Shown: piece after piece, positions 1,477-63,456 of the stretch
How the letters are laid out: each line of letters begins with the position of its first letter
Numbering within the stretch: the stretch's first letter is position 1
Origin: Syntrophobacterales bacterium
GTDB lineage: Bacteria > Desulfobacterota > Syntrophia > Syntrophales > UBA2192
Reading direction: 5' to 3'
Assembly (NCBI GenBank): GCA_018053845.1
Contig: JAGPKU010000001.1
Span: forward strand, 101,235 to 165,234
Length of the DNA stretch: 64,000 bases
Notes under the pieces: generated by a model
Databases searched by the model: none
Told to the model about the DNA's origin: nothing
What the model saw: only the letters and a program-made list of their open reading frames with translations
Made by a program: the position numbers and the translations under genes

Positions 1477-1576
1477 AGTCGGGAAGCTTTGAATCCCGGA
1501 CAAGCCGGCAGCCGTGCGCAAGTCGTCCGATACTCCGAACTTCCCAGCTTCCGAGCTTCCTGACTTCCGTCTTTTC
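1475..1576. repeat. Octad-phased GAAG/CTTCC imperfect hairpin (periodic-hairpin element R1)
   Basis: GAAG/GAAG/GAAT/GACA at 1475,1483,1491,1499 and CTTCC at 1540,1548,1556,1564 (strict 8-nt phase). 1475-1493 pairs with 1549-1567 (18 of 19, 2 G-U). Begins inside the copA stop codon and is followed by TCTTTTC. Confidence 0.7.
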
Positions 1577-3365: not shown

Positions 3366-3465
3366 AGGAAGTGAAGAAGCACTGCAATCAACAAGCTCGG
3401 AAAAGCGGAAGTGGTGCGATCGGCTCTCGGCGCCTCCAAGCTTCACCGCTTCCCAGCCTCTCCAT
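3366..3465. repeat. GAAG/CTTC-rich imperfect hairpin (periodic-hairpin element R2, weaker)
   Basis: Purine arm GGAAGTGAAGAAGC...GGAAAAGCGGAAGTGG, pyrimidine arm CCAAGCTTCACCGCTTCCCAGCCTCTCC. GGAA-AA-GCGG (3399-3408) pairs with CCGCTTCC (3447-3454). Shares CTTCCCAGC with R1. Confidence 0.45.
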
Positions 3466-3493
3466 TGAGGTTGCGCCGCCGGTCCGCAGCCTG

Positions 3494-5411: not shown

Positions 5412-5503
5412 ACCCGGAAGGACCGGGGAGCATCACTCTTCGGTCTCCCCGGCCTCCTCTCTTGGTTTTTCACTCTTCCCGGCCCCTGTGCCCTGACCCC
5501 TGA

Positions 5504-6640
5504 TCAGTACCGGAACAGGGCGGCGACCGGTTCCTTGTCAGGCATCCCGTCGCGCGGGACGGCGTAGACCTTGCCCCCGGCGGCCAGGGTCTGGATCGCC
5601 GCGAAGTCGATCAGGTCCTCGTCGCCTTTCTGCCCGCCGTCGTGGAGTACGGCTTTTCCCGTCCGGGGGTTGAAGGTGCCCCATTTTTCCTGCCCCACCT
5701 CCACGAAGAGATACCCGACGCGGCCGTGATGGGCGGCCGGCACGATCTCCTCGAGGTTGTTCGAGGCAAGGCCCGTCCCGAGCGATTGCCGGTATCGGAC
5801 CCGGGCCTCTTCCTGCTCCTTGCGGAACCAGGGCTCCACGACGGGCCAGGCCAGGGCGTGGAGCTCGTCGGCGCTCATCTGGTCGGGGTTCCCGTTGACG
5901 GCGGTCTCGAGCAGGTTCGGATAGGCGTTGACCTCGCGGTACATGGGAAAGAGGTAATCGACGCCGGCAAACACCAGGGGCGCCCGCTCCTCCTTGAGGT
6001 GCGGCCGGAGGCCCTTGTCGACCTGCTGCAGGAAGCGCAGGAGGTTTTCCTTGCCGTAGTCGGTCCAGGCGCTGGAGCCTTTTTGCCCCGTTGCCCCCGT
6101 CATGGCGGGCCGGGTCCGGAGCTGCTTTTCGAACACGTCGAATTTGAGCACCTCCTCGATATTCCGGGGCAGGCCCTCGGGCCGGGTCTCCTTCACCGCG
6201 TAGCGGGAGCACGCCAGCAGGCGCACGTCCTTCTGGCTCAGGGCCAGCACATAGAACCGCCCCTCCGTGTTGAACAGGGGCAGCAGGGGCTTTACGTTGA
6301 ACCGGTCGGCCAGGATGACCGACGGGACGAAGTCCACGGGAAGCCGGAAGTGACGGAAGAAATCGGGGCACAGGAAAAGGGCCAGACCGTTCGACTGCTG
6401 GCGCCAGAAGGGGTTGTTCTTCACGAGGGCCTGGACGGGTTCGAGGAATTTCTCCGCCTCGACCGTGCGGCGGCCCCCGCGCACGAGCCGCTCTTCCGCT
6501 TCCTTGAGGAGGTTCTTGAGCCGGATGGCGTTCTGCTGCACCTCGGCGCCGGCCCTGTGGGTGGGCATGTAAATGCTCAGGCTCGGCGCCTTGCCCTTCT
6601 CGATGAGAAGCCTCAGTTCGTCCCTGGAAAGCTCGTTCAT
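5504..6640 (-). CDS. eRF1/Pelota-like protein (bacterial archaeo-eukaryotic release-factor-like, baeRF-type); function unknown
   Basis: 378-aa ORF. The N-terminus LSIYMPTHRAG.EVQQNAIRLKNLL matches my recollection of baeRF family proteins, but this was not verified by search. ATG 6640 has SD GGAGGG. An alternative ATG at 6700 overlaps the upstream stop (ATGA). Confidence 0.55.
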   Translation of the reverse strand: MNELSRDELRLLIEKGKAPSLSIYMPTHRAGAEVQQNAIRLKNLLKEAEERLVRGGRRTVEAEKFLEPVQALVKNNPFWRQQSNGLALFLCPDFFRHFRLPVDFVPSVILADRFNVKPLLPLFNTEGRFYVLALSQKDVRLLACSRYAVKETRPEGLPRNIEEVLKFDVFEKQLRTRPAMTGATGQKGSSAWTDYGKENLLRFLQQVDKGLRPHLKEERAPLVFAGVDYLFPMYREVNAYPNLLETAVNGNPDQMSADELHALAWPVVEPWFRKEQEEARVRYRQSLGTGLASNNLEEIVPAAHHGRVGYLFVEVGQEKWGTFNPRTGKAVLHDGGQKGDEDLIDFAAIQTLAAGGKVYAVPRDGMPDKEPVAALFRY

Positions 6641-7380: not shown

Positions 7381-7442
7381 CGCGAAAGCCTTTCCCCGGG
7401 GATCTCGACAGGCCCGGCGGTGAGGCGCTTTTAGCACATGAC

Positions 7443-7533
7443 GTGAGGAAGCGCGGAAGAGCAGAAGAGCGGAGTCGATTTCCATTCCCCCTGTCTCGAG
7501 CCGCTCTTCCTCACTTCCGATCTTCCGATCCTC
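7443..7533. repeat. Octad-phased GGAAG/CTTCC imperfect hairpin (periodic-hairpin element R3)
   Basis: GGAAG/GGAAG/AGAAG/GGAG at 7447,7455,7463,7471 and CTTCC at 7506,7514,7522 (8-nt phase). Perfect core GAAGAGCGG (7464-7472) / CCGCTCTTC (7501-7509), flanked by phased GGAAG:CTTCC helices. Confidence 0.7.
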
Positions 7534-7604
7534 GCCGACTCGAAGCCCCGTGGCGGTCATGCAGCAACGAACCCGTGATGCCTCGCAGGGTCGGCAGCCG
7601 GCGT

Positions 7605-12337: not shown

Positions 12338-12339
12338 TC

Positions 12340-12444
12340 AGAAGGCAAGAGGGTTTGAAGGCGAAAAGGGTGGAGAATCGGAGGCTGACAGGGGCTGCAG
12401 ACGTATTCAACGTTCTCACCCTCTCACCTTCTTGCCCTCTCCGG
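12340..12444. repeat. Dispersed octad-phased hairpin element, family GGnnnnAG/TCTCACC (copy R4; homologous to 30557-30651)
   Basis: Octads GGCAAGAG GGTTTGAA GGCGAAAA GGGTGGAG AATCGGAG from 12344 (8-nt phase). Right arm TTCTCACCCTCTCACCTTCT (12413-12432) is 19/20 identical to 30631-30650. Left arm is about 80% identical to 30557-30592. Arms pair (12368-77:12413-21, 12357-64:12424-31, 12348-53:12435-40). Confidence 0.8.
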
Positions 12445-12502
12445 TTCATGAAATGAACATCCGGACGGCAACCGGATCATATCGAAAGGTCGTTTCAGAT
12501 CT

Positions 12503-14486: not shown

Positions 14487-14550
14487 ATTGTCTTCCGGAT
14501 CCTTCAGGAGGTCTTCCTGAAGCTCTTCCCCCGATGAACAAAGGTATCAG

Positions 14551-14626
14551 TGGCAGGTTGCAGGTGACAGGTCAAAGACTGTTGGCAGGGATAGCCTGTT
14601 ACCTGTTACCTGTTACCTGTTCCTGC
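14551..14626. repeat. Heptad-phased CAGGT/ACCTG hairpin with CCTGTTA x4 tandem repeat (periodic-hairpin element R5)
   Basis: CAGGT at 14554,14561,14568 and CCTGTTA at 14595,14602,14609,14616. 14554-14572 pairs with 14601-14619 (19 positions, 1 mismatch, 2 G-U). The repeat array contains the stop codon of the L,D-transpeptidase gene (14606-14608). Confidence 0.8.
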
Positions 14627-15946
14627 GTTTGCCAGCTCCCTCGACTCGGCAGGCCCGACAATCACCCCGTCGATTTCCAGGTCGACCTTGAGGCGCTTCA
14701 CGGCGGCCAGGGCTGTTTTTCGGTCCGCGTAGGGTCCGGCGAGGACCTGGTAGCGATTGTCCTTCCGCACCACCCGGGCGGGGATCTGGGGCCCCTGGTG
14801 GTTGAGCACGGCGGCCATTCTCCGGGCGTTGTCCTCCCCGATGGTCTCGTCGGCGCGGACATACCAGGCCCCGGGTTTCATCGCCGGCACCCGGGGCTGT
14901 CCGGTCAACTCGGCGGGCCGCGGGGCCTCCGCGGCCCCGGCGATCATCCCCTGTAGATCTTCGCCGCCCGCGAGCACCGGGACGGGGATGCCCCTGGCCT
15001 GCGTCAGCGTTTCCTCCACGCGATTCCAGTCCACGCGCAGCTTTTCTTTCCTTTCGATCTCCTTGAGCCTCGCGTAGAGCCGCTTCCGGATCTCCGCGGC
15101 ATCGAGCTCTTCCTGGGGCTCGTGGGCCTCGAGGTAGAGCATGCCGCCCGCGCGGCCGATCAGGTAGGGCTGATTCACGATGTGCACGGGGGTCCGGACC
15201 GGCACGACCCGGTAGAGCTTCTCCACGTCCTCCGGGTAGAGCCGGATGCACCCGTTGGTCGCCCGCAGGCCGATGCTGAAGGGCTTGTTGGTCCCGTGGA
15301 CCACGTAGCTCGCCCGGCTCAGGTAGAGTGCGTACTCTCCGAGCGGGTTGTCAGGCCCCGGCGGCACTTCGGCGGGCAGCGGGTCGCCCCTCTTGGCGTG
15401 GTCGCTCCGAATCGAGGCGGGCACGTACCAGGTCGGCCGGACGGCCTTGCGCACCACGGACATCTCGCCCAGCGGCGTGGAGCGCCCCTCTTCCCCGATG
15501 CCGACGGGATAGGTGACGATCGCCCGGTTCTTCCCCCCGTGGTAGAACAGCCGCATCGCCGCCAGGTTGATCACGATCCCCTGCCGGGGGGCGTCGGGCA
15601 GAATGAACATCAGGGGCAGCACGACCCGGCTGCCTGCCGGGGGCAGCCAGACGTCCACGTCCGGGTTGGCCGCCTTGACGGCGTCGTGGCCGAGGCCGAA
15701 ATGCCTCGCGATGTCGGGCAGCGTGTCGCCCTCCCGGGTGCGGACCACGGCGAGCCGGCCGATGACCCGGTCGCCCCCGGGGTCGCCGAAGACGTGCCGC
15801 TCGAGGCGCGTTCCCGGCCGATCGGGCTCGGCTGTCGGCCCGGGCCCGGTCAGCCGCCACTTCGGCGGCGCCGCGCAGGCACTGAGCAGCAGACCCGCCG
15901 CCGCGAGGATGACGAGACGGGCGGTTCTGTGAGACCGAAGGTTCAC
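14606..15946 (-). CDS. L,D-transpeptidase (YkuD) lipoprotein with N-terminal LysM and C-terminal SPOR domain
   Basis: Lipobox LLLSAC. LysM ([25 protein letters not shown]). YkuD catalytic HGT....G...SNGCIRL. SPOR-like C-terminus ([22 protein letters not shown]). GTG 15946 with SD GGGAGGAAAGG, overlapping the upstream stop by 4 nt. Confidence 0.9.
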
Positions 15947-21388: not shown

Positions 21389-21580
21389 TCCCGACCCGTC
21401 CCCTCCCCGCCGTGTCCCCCCTCGCCCGCCCCGTCTCCGGACATTCGGGAGCCGATTTCCTTTCGGTCCACCGTCTGCCCGTTGCTTTTTGACGCGGAAT
21501 CGTTTATAAAAGAGAAAAATATAACCGGTTTCGGGGTTCGGGGGCCTTGCCGCTCCCGGAGGGAAATCCGGATGGTCGGG

Positions 21581-21617
21581 CCGCCATTCGATCGAGCGAT
21601 CGGATGGCGGTTTTTTT
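21581..21617 (+). terminator. Rho-independent terminator-type hairpin 190 nt downstream of epmA
   Basis: CCGCCATTCGATCG (21581-21594) / CGATCGGATGGCGG (21597-21610), one G-U, followed by TTTTTTT (21611-21617). Confidence 0.75.
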
Positions 21618-30312: not shown

Positions 30313-30556
30313 GGGTCCCAGGCTTCGCGGGCCGGGGGTTGAAGAACCAAGATCGATCTCGCCGCCGAGGCTCGGGCCTTTCGCTTTCCCCGGACCCGAT
30401 CCCCGCGACCCTCTCCCCTTGACCCTCTTTTCTGCTTCGTCGGCGCACGTTACCACAGCCCCGCCGCCGCGGGCAACCCCTTTGTGACGAAAACCCCGTA
30501 AAACAAAAGGACCACGGGATAGTCGTATCCCATGGCCCTGTCTCATTCGGACGGAT

Positions 30557-30651
30557 AGAAGATAAGAGGGTAAGAGGGCGAGAAGGTGGGAGGACGAAAG
30601 ACGTGCGGCAGGCGGGCAGCCTATCCACGTTTCTCACCGTCTCACCTTCTG
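30557..30651. repeat. Dispersed octad-phased hairpin element, family GGnnnnAG/TCTCACC (copy R8; homologous to 12340-12444)
   Basis: Octads GATAAGAG GGTAAGAG GGCGAGAA GGTGGGAG GACGAAAG from 30561. ACGTG(30601-05):CACGT(30626-30) and 30581-30591:30640-30650 pair. TTCTCACCGTCTCACCTTCT (30631-30650) is 19/20 identical to 12413-12432. Confidence 0.8.
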
Positions 30652-50168: not shown

Positions 50169-54293
<4,125 letters not shown>

Positions 54294-54314
54294 GTTGGGA
54301 CTCCTTTAAAAACT

Positions 54315-54401
54315 GGCTAAAGGCTCCGGGCGAAGGGCTTACGGCTAGAGACAACATGCTTTCTGCCTCGCCTATTGCCGTATGCCTTAAGCCATATGCC
54401 G
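54315..54401. repeat. Heptad-phased GGC/GCC hairpin module 1 in the rpoB-rpoC spacer (element R9)
   Basis: GGC at 54315,54322,54329,54336,54343 (strict 7-nt phase) and GCC at 54370,54377,54384,54391,54398. GGC:GCC triplets pair in register, with additional flanking pairs (for example 54315-54324 with 54384-54393, 9 of 10 positions). Confidence 0.75.
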
Positions 54402-54426
54402 TTCTTTCTTCCTATCTGTCGTGACC

Positions 54427-54494
54427 GGCTCGGGGCCAAGGCTCCGGAAACGTTTTCTTCCTTTTCCATACGCCTTAAGCCATAAGCCCTTTGC

Positions 54495-54495
<1 letters not shown>
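54427..54495. repeat. Heptad-phased GGC/GCC hairpin module 2 in the rpoB-rpoC spacer (element R10)
   Basis: GGC at 54427,54434,54440 and GCC at 54472,54479,54486,54493. Exact repeats with module 1: AAGGCTCCGG (54320-29 = 54438-47) and GCCTTAAGCCATA (54384-96 = 54472-84). The last GCC unit overlaps the rpoB stop codon. Confidence 0.75.
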
Positions 54496-58589
<4,094 letters not shown>

Positions 58590-62762: not shown

Positions 62763-62802
62763 AGGTTAGTGTGAAATCCGTCTTTTGTCAAGGATTTTTT
62801 TA
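62763..62802 (-). promoter_or_regulatory. Promoter of the tRNA/rpmG/secE... supercluster (with A-tract UP-like element)
   Basis: Minus strand GTAAAAAAATCC-TTGACA (62791-62786), 17-nt spacer, TAACCT (62768-62763), about 70 nt upstream of the first tRNA. The local sequence is AT-rich. Confidence 0.55.
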
Positions 62803-62806
62803 CAAC

Positions 62807-62890
62807 GGGCTTGAGGCAAAAAGCGAAGGGCTGAAGCAAAAGACGTTCAAATCCATCCTTTTCCCCCTTGGCCCCGCGCCCTTTGCCTAT
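62807..62890. repeat. Heptad-phased GGC/GCC hairpin (element R11; same family as the rpoB-rpoC spacer modules)
   Basis: GGC/AGC at 62808,62815,62822,62829 and GCC at 62871,62878,62885. 62815-62842 is about 70% complementary to 62859-62888. Exact matches to the rpoBC spacer: GCGAAGGGCT (62823-32 = 54330-39) and the 17-mer 62878-62894 = 54486-54502. Confidence 0.75.
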
Positions 62891-63456
62891 TCTTCACCGA
62901 ATACATCGGCCGAAAAAAGGTAGATCTCCGTCTCCGGGTCGCGCCAGGCATCGGGGGCAAGGCCCGCCTTCCGGCAGGTTTCCCTCAGGAACGTCTCCCG
63001 GTCCCATCGCCACTCGGTGGCCACCTGGGGCAGCAGCAGCCCCGCCCGCGCCCCCTTGCGGATGTAGAGGCCGTGCGTGCCGATTTCGATGGCGCCCACA
63101 TCGGCGACCCGGCGCAGGGGGGTGAGCACGGAGATCTCCACGCGGAGGTCCTTGAGTTCCTCCCTGCGCAGGGGCGGGAACCGGGGGTCCTGGAACGCCG
63201 CGGCCACGGCCATCTCCTCGACGGTCTGCGCCAGGGGCTTTTTCGCCTCGATCATGCCGATGCAGCCGCGCAGCTTGCCCCGCTTCTTCAGGGAGACGAA
63301 GGCCCCGCGCTTCTCGTCCGGTGTCCCCTGTCCTTCGGCCGCCGGCGGGGCTTCCCCCCTCAGCTCGGCCTCGATGGATTCGCGGGCGATCCGCAGGAGG
63401 GCCTGCTTCTGCTCGCCGGTGAGTCCCCGGTCGGTTGCGGCCTTGCCGTCTGCCAT
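62887..63456 (-). CDS. AmmeMemoRadiSam system protein A (AMMECR1 domain)
   Basis: 189 aa from MADGK. RGAFVSLKK.GKLRGCIG, PLRREELKDLRVEISVLT.L, GTHGLYIRKG.RAGLLLPQVA are AMMECR1 signatures. Confidence 0.9.
   Translation of the reverse strand: MADGKAATDRGLTGEQKQALLRIARESIEAELRGEAPPAAEGQGTPDEKRGAFVSLKKRGKLRGCIGMIEAKKPLAQTVEEMAVAAAFQDPRFPPLRREELKDLRVEISVLTPLRRVADVGAIEIGTHGLYIRKGARAGLLLPQVATEWRWDRETFLRETCRKAGLAPDAWRDPETEIYLFSADVFGEE

Follow-up and report, generated by a model that had tools for sequence, protein, structure and literature searches.

In the 64-kb stretch of Syntrophobacterales DNA analyzed here (the window), rpoB and rpoC are read from the minus strand, and a spacer of 201 nt (54294-54494) separates the TAG stop codon of rpoB (54495-54497) from the GTG start codon of rpoC (54291-54293). 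These boundaries were reproduced by independent gene calls on an NCBI MAG contig, GCA_020049735.1, which carries an identical spacer; a 199-nt version is found in three JGI metagenome assemblies. An assembly artefact, a possibility raised when this DNA had been read from its sequence alone (the sequence-only reading), is ruled out by the presence of the same sequence in independent assemblies. The spacer had also been called long, and it is so in comparison with E. coli K-12, where 76 nt lie between the two genes. A consensus scan for promoters and terminators called none in the rpoB-rpoC spacer, and Rfam gave no match at the gathering threshold (at E values up to 10, the only hit was a chance match to a lncRNA fragment). 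A role in readthrough, or in providing stops in all three frames, was considered and dropped because in-frame readthrough of the rpoB UAG runs for 32 codons.

Phased triplets and predicted folding of the spacer

On the plus strand of the spacer, GGC occurs at exact 7-nt steps (54315/22/29/36/43) and is followed by GCC with the same spacing (54370/77/84/91/98); a second module has GGC at 54427/34/40 and GCC at 54472/79/86/93. The units of the two series are complementary, the GCC runs at 54370-54398 and 54472-54493 facing the GGC runs at 54315-54343 and 54427-54440 (Table 1). The phasing recorded in the sequence-only reading was correct at every position and is confined to this spacer: four successive GGC-N4 units matched at five places in the window, all five of them within the rpoB-rpoC spacer, whereas 0.10 matches were expected from shuffles. 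Tandem Repeats Finder reported period 7 at 54466-54488.

Two words, described earlier as common to both modules, indeed recur exactly: a 10-mer, AAGGCTCCGG, at 54320 and 54438, and a 13-mer, GCCTTAAGCCATA, at 54384 and 54472. Because the 13-mer links both 5' arms and the 10-mer links both 3' arms, the 201-nt spacer is a tandem duplication of a heptad hairpin of approximately 100 nt, in which an apical stem-loop joins approximately five G-rich heptads to approximately five C-rich ones. Single-module orthologues of 101-111 nt also back the duplication. On the mRNA, the first GGC of module A is overlapped by the UAG stop codon, and the final GGC of the same arm continues as GGC(GUAU). A linker of approximately 25 nt separates the 3' arm of module A from the 5' arm of module B, and the 3' arm of module B is followed by AGUUUUUAAAGGAG-N6-GUG.

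Table 1. Positions of the spacer features and of similar arrays in the window (motifs of minus-strand features are written as RNA)
Feature	Position	Strand	Remarks
rpoB stop codon UAG	54495..54497	-	the first phased GGC and the outer helix (first pair) both begin with its G
Module A 5' arm	54472..54495	-	GGCAAAG GGCUUAU GGCUUAA GGC (4 phased GGC), then decayed heptads GGAAAAG GAAGAAA
Module A apical stem-loop	54445..54468	-	UGGAAA...UUUCCG
Module A 3' arm	54427..54447	-	decayed, C-rich; CCGGAGCCUUGGCCCCGAGCC; 10-mer CCGGAGCCUU common to module B 3' arm
Module B 5' arm	54370..54400	-	GGCAUAU GGCUUAA GGCAUAC GGCAAUA GGC (5 phased GGC); 13-mer UAUGGCUUAAGGC common to module A
Module B apical stem-loop	54348..54369	-	GAGGCAG...UUGUCUC
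Module B 3' arm	54315..54345	-	GCCGUAA GCCCUUC GCCCGGA GCCUUUA GCC (5 phased GCC)
Predicted long-range outer helix, 5' strand	54478..54495	-	pairs with 54329-54346
Predicted long-range outer helix, 3' strand	54329..54346	-	pairs with 54495-54478
rpoC Shine-Dalgarno AAAGGAG	54301..54307	-	outside main stem
GGC-type heptad hairpin (locus 2), period 7	62798..62900	-	directly after AMMECR1-family stop codon, just before TTGACA of tRNA-operon promoter
Period-7 array, CAGGUNN versus CCUGUUA	14548-14632		between convergent genes
Period-7 array	30385-30430		
Period-8 array	1530-1570		
Period-8 arrays	3400-3470, 7440-7535, 12338-12445, 30555-30650		

A comparison of folding energy with shuffled controls had been proposed as a check on the hairpins. 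The mRNA (minus) strand of the spacer folds with -70.8 kcal/mol (z = -2.8), and 1 of 200 shuffles was as good; the plus strand gave z = -1.4. In the predicted mRNA structure, the first 18 nt, beginning at the G of the stop codon, form the 5' strand of a long-range outer helix with 17 of 18 bp and pair probabilities of at least 0.8 (approximately 1.0 for most pairs). The conformer with this helix has an energy of -74.3 kcal/mol versus -67.3 kcal/mol for two local hairpins (-29.0 and -38.3 kcal/mol). Hence the earlier picture of two in-register hairpin modules holds as far as the phased triplets and the duplicated modules are concerned, but the fold favored in the mRNA is the long-range helix and not two separate modules.

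Orthologous spacers and the conserved triplets

The rpoB-rpoC spacers of relatives were gathered by exact-protein look-ups and by scanning metagenomes with the beginning of rpoC; among named RpoC proteins, the closest belong to Syntrophales and Smithellaceae. All 13 distinct spacers of a genus-level Syntrophales clade (rpoC 5' DNA 88-100% identical) share one architecture: 0-6 nt after the stop codon come approximately five G-rich heptads, then a 6-10-bp apical stem-loop, approximately five C-rich heptads, some 10 nt, AAnAUAAGGAG, and GUG. In all sampled members, the hairpin occupies the spacer between the stop codon of rpoB and a point approximately 10 nt upstream of the rpoC Shine-Dalgarno sequence. 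In Syntrophales outside this clade (more distant; RpoC 82-87% identical), the spacer measures 44-104 nt, contains an ordinary hairpin or none, and is free of heptads. The heptad element arose in the ancestor of the genus-level clade.

The units vary strongly within the clade, where three unit types occur among relatives with 88-99% identical rpoC 5' DNA. GGC-N4/GCC-N4 units make up two modules in the window and in L121-123 (199-201 nt) and one module in L135, L137, and five identical contigs (110-111 nt). CAGGC/GCCUG units are present as one module in L138 (107 nt) and as two modules in L133 (182 nt), while CAGGUGA is combined with CCCUCGA or CCUGGAC in L124, L139, L136, and L146 (106-109 nt). 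The remaining spacers, L130-132 and L134 (101-103 nt), carry AGGGUAN/CCUCGNU; a G-quadruplex reading was rejected, as it fits these AGGG-type alleles only and not the GGC units of the window. The rpoC 5' DNA of L124 and L131 is 98% identical, yet their 5' arms and apical stems differ. The unit sequence of the spacer has been replaced several times, whereas the 7-nt period, the approximately 5 + 5 copies, and the position are unchanged. One single allele was identical in seven metagenome contigs, so the spacer is not hypervariable.

The stability of the heptad spacers is not consistently exceptional. Single-module variants, whose stems are ladders of 3-5-bp rungs, gave folding z-scores from -5.5 to +0.3. 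Sense and antisense z-scores showed no consistent bias across the Syntrophales series; the antisense strand folded equally well or better in approximately half of the variants, and the structure is therefore not tied to RNA rather than DNA. When duplex energies were compared after swapping arms, cognate arms ranked among the weakest partners in the CAGGT type and in the AGGGT type. Since cognate arms were not the best for two of the three unit types, the arm-swap test gives no support for optimized pairing.

Between the window and its nearest relative, L121, the spacer differs at 26 of 201 positions, and four-fold degenerate sites differ by 11.5% in the 3' part of rpoB and by 11.1% in rpoC; overall, the spacer diverges at or above the four-fold-site rate, that is, about neutrally. 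The phased GGC/GCC triplets behave differently. None of their 41 bases has changed, versus 26 of 160 other positions (Fisher P = 0.0017) and versus 13 of 64 other G/C positions (P = 0.0009). Conservation against the nearest relative is restricted to these phased G/C triplets. In an alignment of the three two-module spacers (window, L121, and L133), the linkers have been exchanged but no phased triplet varies. The short helices clamped by G:C at 7-nt intervals, which had been described from the sequence, are a real architecture, and their clamps look constrained. Within the predicted outer helix, 6-7 pairs have changed on both sides in L133, which has 14 of 18 bp compared with 17 of 18 bp in the window, and a U:A pair is replaced by G:C between the window and L121. 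Selection is not required for compensatory changes in inverted repeats, as template-switch correction of quasi-palindromes can also produce them.

Arrays of the same design at other sites

A period-7 scan of the 64-kb window matched at 5478, 14549/14588, and 22188 and in the spacer only, and a period-8 scan matched at 1526, 7438/7500, 12410, 18077, 30550, and 42751. Essentially all of these matches are intergenic, and periods 5, 6, 10, and 11 are nearly absent. Judged by eye, the window arrays (Table 1) have the same design, often with a perfect apical hairpin between periodic G-rich and C-rich arms; they use unrelated units, e.g., CTTCC, TCTCACC, and CCTGTTA. The heptad element is not specific to rpoBC, and operon-specific readings find no support, the same kind of array being found at unrelated intergenic sites in the window.

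Other copies of the spacer family had been expected, and one was found at locus 2, where every relative likewise has the GGC type. A 17-nt junction, AAGAAUAGGCAAAGGGC, is common to locus 2 and the end of rpoB; locus 2 also shares AGCCCUUCGCC....GCCUU.AGCC.GUU.U.AAA with the 3' arm of module B. These common junction, right-arm, and flank motifs indicate that locus 2 and the rpoBC spacer, the only two GGC-type loci in the 64 kb, are paralogous.

Beyond the window, the 23-nt pattern GGCNTANGGCTTAAGGCNTANGG matched at least 119 loci, compared with approximately 4 expected by our own arithmetic for 596 Gb of random sequence. The matches listed are heterogeneous tandem heptads from Bacteroidota, Gemmatimonadota, Acidobacteriota, Nitrospirota, Planctomycetota, Patescibacteria, Desulfobacterota, and Proteobacteria; they include isolates, and some genomes have many copies. 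Two matches only were on phage contigs. An exact phased GCC partner within 300 nt was present for at least 28 of 122 arrays among the matches listed, in which about half of the arrays abut or supply the stop codon of the upstream ORF. By naive gene calls, 62 GGCNTAN array sites among the matches listed are co-directional, 24 convergent, and 10 divergent; the arrays in this set are mostly at gene 3' ends. Both here and in the spacer series, arrays typically have 4-5 units. In 791 kb from genomes with listed matches, off-target tandem arrays (away from the selected sites) numbered 25 for period 7 and 11 for period 8, and there were none of period 5, 6, 10, or 11. Judging from these sequences, the rpoBC spacer is one member of a genome-wide, pan-bacterial kind of inverted array with a 7- or 8-nt period.

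One match to the heptad pattern, in Pedobacter segetis, sits in the rpoB-rpoC spacer. A Pelobium MAG and Pseudopedobacter saltans (RpoC 95% and 91% identical) have heptad hairpins in the corresponding spacer too, built from other units (UUAUAAG/UUAUCAC and AAGUUNN/AACUUNN, respectively). In the three Sphingobacteriaceae genera, the sense-strand heptad hairpin gave z = -4.4 to -6.6. RNAalifold was uninformative on these three spacers because the periodic arms let the alignment slip register.

Origin, role, and relation to known systems

The reading that we favor, at roughly even odds (probability about 0.5), is that the spacer as a whole is an intercistronic mRNA hairpin lengthened by slippage, whose G:C rungs were kept; it would be a generic structural spacer element and not an attenuator. 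The 7-nt register would then be a record of arm growth and homogenization rather than a code for an rpoBC regulator. Starting from a hairpin already present in the spacer, the arms would probably have grown by 7-nt units through replication slippage or unequal exchange; bacterial intergenic DNA is known to tend toward heptanucleotide repeats, which such growth would fit. Hairpins in the rpoB-rpoC gap are common outside the clade, as E. coli and the Sphingobacteriaceae show. Selection may retain as many G:C rungs as the untranslated stretch of the rpoBC mRNA needs to fold back on itself. With the gap folded, the stop codon of rpoB would lie near the ribosome-binding site of rpoC, and nucleases or Rho would meet little exposed RNA; as the stem begins at the stop codon, a ribosome terminating on rpoB would have to melt the stem base. 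From this arrangement we infer a role in folding the gap away, in coupling, and in protection.

An unlikely alternative, to which we nevertheless give some weight, is that the spacer is neutral or selfish DNA: a heptanucleotide simple-repeat palindrome that grows and shrinks by slippage and template switching and is tolerated without a function here. The about neutral divergence of the whole spacer is what this predicts, as is the turnover of units and even of apical stems between relatives with 98% identical coding DNA (L124 versus L131). The weak folding z-scores of several variants, the about equal folding of both strands, and the failure of cognate arms to be the best partners point the same way, and so do the absence of the element from other Syntrophales and the like arrays with unrelated units at many other gaps. 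Such DNA should not, however, have significantly conserved phased triplets while the remainder drifts, nor keep its approximately 5 + 5 copies and a length of 101-111 nt through several unit replacements. The identity of one allele in seven metagenome contigs and the persistence of heptad hairpins in the rpoB-rpoC spacer of three Sphingobacteriaceae genera also speak against it.

It is quite unlikely, in our estimate, that heptad "ladder" hairpins are a distinct selected class, intercistronic and at gene 3' ends, across bacteria. In such a class, each 7-nt unit would retain no more than a clamp of 3-5 nt (G/C or purine/pyrimidine), each arm would have about five units, and the position from stop codon to ribosome-binding site would be constrained; the 7-nt step would reflect a molecular ruler (a protein, the ribosome, or a polymerase) and not slippage alone. 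The class would have settled repeatedly in the rpoB-rpoC gap, because heptad hairpins are present there both in the Syntrophales genus and in three Sphingobacteriaceae genera.

We regard as very unlikely a dispersed mobile or convertible repeat family (REP- or MITE-like), from which a GGC-type hairpin would have been copied between loci, landed between rpoB and rpoC, and been duplicated there. It would account for the paralogous copy at locus 2, with its shared 17-nt junction and right-arm and flank motifs, for a similar element at another operon in Syntrophaceae UBA2192 (locus L010), for the mosaic look of spacer alleles among relatives, and for the 5 of 18 metagenome contigs that break within approximately 300 nt of the spacer. 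However, conserved termini and target-site duplications are absent, in one MAG with many copies the arrays are unrelated in flanks and units, and only two GGC-type loci lie in 64 kb. Moreover, none of the ten small ORFs of the window that were tested has a Y1-transposase (Y1_Tnp) or RAYT domain, and the orthologous position is retained across the clade, unlike a scattered insertion.

A protein-binding array, as suggested by the sequence-only reading, could be read at a 7-nt or 7-bp register either on RNA (HutP-like) or on DNA, where the omega repressor recognizes heptad operators. The invariant triplets and freely varying linkers of the window, L121, and L133, the fixed 7-nt period, and the typical 4-5 units are in keeping with this, and regulator binding has been proposed for similar arrays ("global regulator sites" in Geobacter; PMC2700814). 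The triplet itself nevertheless changes (GGC, CAGG, AGGG) among relatives with 92-98% identical rpoC 5' DNA, and it differs among loci, as other arrays in the same genome use unrelated units (CTTCC, TCTCACC, CCTGTTA); a sequence-specific array is therefore highly improbable, and no candidate protein was identified.

Least probable of all is the attenuator also suggested earlier, or a dedicated RNase III processing site, that would set the rpoB:rpoC ratio. The neighboring rplL-rpoB gap of E. coli contains both an attenuator and an RNase III site; in the window, L121, and L133, the last GCC arm leads into a U5 run, and the predicted outer helix (17 of 18 bp) is near the length of an RNase III substrate. 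Yet no terminator or promoter was called in the spacer by the consensus scan, the stem beside the U-run is weak and broken by interruptions, and most orthologues have no U-run and only 3-5-bp ladders for stems. In addition, rpoC, the gene downstream, is essential and required at 1:1 with rpoB, and other Syntrophales manage with 44-104-nt spacers without heptads.

The rpoB-rpoC locus is an unusually clean natural series, with 13 alleles of one orthologous site in an essential operon. The series and its independent parallel in Bacteroidota make selection versus slippage, and RNA versus DNA versus protein binding, testable on a defined construct. They also carry a warning for annotation, in that long, strikingly patterned spacers in core operons need not be regulators.

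Several known systems resemble the spacer in part. The REP/BIME elements of enterobacteria are imperfect palindromes, often within operons, that occupy the 3' ends of genes and transcribed extragenic gaps, and they are thought to act as mRNA 3' stabilizers; REPs belong to one conserved sequence family, are mobilized by RAYT, and are not periodic. The rpoBC spacer is likewise an imperfect palindrome in a transcribed gap, but what is shared among its relatives is the period and not the sequence. The RNA sites of HutP (UAG-N4) and TRAP consist of conserved triplets at a fixed step, separated by non-conserved spacers, and the HutP step is also 7 nt. Unlike these sites, the spacer has GGC/GCC in place of UAG or GAG, its triplet is not conserved among orthologues (GGC, CAGG(T/C), AGGG), and similar arrays occupy many unrelated loci. 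The gap between rpoB and rpoC in E. coli K-12 contains a stable stem-loop too (z = -3.25), but with an ordinary, non-repetitive GC stem of 10 bp in 76 nt, and several Syntrophales outgroups also have an ordinary hairpin there; in the window, by contrast, the arms are 35-nt heptad arrays, and duplication has extended the spacer to 201 nt.

Literature searches returned no paper with a GGCTTAA array and nothing relevant on rpoB-rpoC spacer hairpins. The view of the sequence-only reading that the architecture is undescribed cannot be upheld, however, as the literature contains intergenic heptanucleotide repeats, some of them inverted intercistronic pairs with approximately five units (PMC2700814, PMC4692102, PMC4679880). 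As cited in two later papers, Mrazek et al. (2007) found that heptanucleotide repeats predominate among the long simple repeats of many prokaryotic genomes, and proposed slippage linked to the polymerase footprint as their origin (PMC4679880, PMC4692102). Inverted pairs of such repeats were noted in Xanthomonas (PMC4692102), and the TAACTGA repeats of Beggiatoaceae lie upstream of start codons (PMC4679880). In these accounts, the surveyed repeats, the cyanobacterial STRR, the GGGAATC-type repeats of Xanthomonas and Nostoc, and the TAACTGA repeats share with the rpoBC spacer a 7-nt unit, an intergenic location, usually about four units, and strong variation between close relatives. As described there, they are mostly direct, and the roles proposed for them (G-quadruplex formation, translational control) are specific to the unit. 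In the rpoBC spacer, unlike in those simple repeats, only a 3-nt G/C core is kept per unit, and the arms form a predicted hairpin.

The closest likeness in design is to arrays of Geobacter metallireducens, where multicopy paired sites on opposite strands consist of four octanucleotides, three 8-9-mers, or five heptanucleotides, the latter found, e.g., between proB and proA; there are also 49 elements of four heptanucleotides, and the arrays were read as binding sites for global regulators (PMC2700814). Like classes 1-3 and Gmet_H4 of that genome (Aklujkar et al., 2009, PMC2700814), the arrays described here have 3-5 tandem units of 7 or 8 nt, form opposite-strand pairs at variable distance in intergenic and intercistronic gaps, occur in many copies per genome, and come from a host of the former Deltaproteobacteria. 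The rpoBC spacer shows all five features of paired intergenic heptanucleotide arrays: tandem 7-nt units, a complementary array, a non-coding location, several arrays per genome, and unit variation. The Geobacter units are MTYCTGA, GGACCGG, and GTTGCTYN, as against GGC-N4/GCC-N4, and their elements are multicopy families detectable by BLAST and interpreted as sites for regulators or for IHF/HU. The rpoBC spacer, in contrast, is one orthologous locus with turnover of its units, duplicated in tandem. What is new here is the series of orthologous alleles, the conservation of the clamps only, and the parallel in the rpoB-rpoC spacers of Sphingobacteriaceae.

Local features of the spacer and its alleles

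Each of the two modules of the 201-nt rpoB-rpoC spacer contains a mini-ORF, AUG GCU UAA (54482-54474 and 54394-54386, minus strand). In L121, the 98% relative, two substitutions fall within these mini-ORFs, giving AUG GCG UAA (synonymous) and AUG GCU UGA (stop-to-stop). Because more distant spacer alleles do not keep the mini-ORF, its presence is probably a coincidence. The last heptad of the 3' arm (CCUUUA) can also pair with UAAAGG of the rpoC Shine-Dalgarno sequence in an alternative local hairpin (54298-54327, minus strand), which would compete with the predicted long-range outer helix. This Shine-Dalgarno-pairing hairpin is predicted for the window and the nearest relative (L121), but not for another relative, L133.

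Where relatives carry AGGGUAN-type units (L131, 9972-10011; L132; L134), the 5' arms have the sequence GGG-N4-GGG-N4-GGG-N4-GGG, which on the sense strand is a canonical G-quadruplex motif; the GGC units of the window cannot form such a structure. Five of the 18 metagenome contigs that include the rpoC start (L124, L133, L138, L142, and L143) terminate no more than about 300 nt from the spacer, which suggests assembly breaks at this site, caused by strain heterogeneity or repeats.

Related arrays elsewhere in the window

Only periods 7 and 8 are enriched in non-coding sequence of the window, and arrays of both kinds occur outside the spacer.

Period-7 and period-8 arrays outside the rpoB-rpoC spacer
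Feature	Window position	Strand	Setting or units
Second period-7 hairpin	14548-14632		Gap between convergent genes
C-rich heptad run	30385-30430		CCCCGGA CCCGAUC CCCGCGA CCCUCUC CCCUUGA CCCUC
GGC-type heptad hairpin	62798-62900	minus	Immediately 3' of AMMECR1-family gene
Hairpin-arranged period-8 arrays	1530-1570, 3400-3470, 7440-7535, 12338-12445, 30555-30650		Other intergenic gaps

The second period-7 hairpin (5' arm GUGGCAG GUUGCAG GUGACAG GUCAAAG; 3' arm CCUGUUA, four times) has units similar to CAGGU-type rpoB-rpoC alleles of relatives, and the C-rich heptads resemble 3' arms of L124-type alleles. The GGC-type hairpin, about 10 nt upstream of a TTGACA promoter-like hexamer of the tRNA-Thr/Tyr/Gly/Thr operon, shares 17 identical nucleotides, AAGAATAGGCAAAGGGC, with the rpoB stop-codon junction; the genes are unrelated. 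Arm pairs among the period-8 arrays include GGAAGNGC/CTTCCNNN, GAAGGCAA.../TCTCACCN, and TAAGAGGG/TCTCACCN. Several of these arrays border a perfect GC-rich stem-loop; in one case the array begins at a stop codon.

Separately, positions 21534-21590 match the Rfam family nhaA-I, a Na+ riboswitch candidate (49.9 bits versus a gathering score of 37), which fits a Desulfobacterota origin.

A parallel in Sphingobacteriaceae

Heptad hairpins are also found in the rpoB-rpoC spacer of three Sphingobacteriaceae genera: in Pedobacter segetis (L071, 3669-3744), a Pelobium MAG (L156, 1119-1200), and Pseudopedobacter saltans (L157, 1115-1200). In the Pelobium MAG, further heptads (GAUUUGA GAUAAGA GAUUUGA GUAUUGA; 5496-5529) lie directly 3' of the rpoC stop codon, upstream of a canonical terminator.
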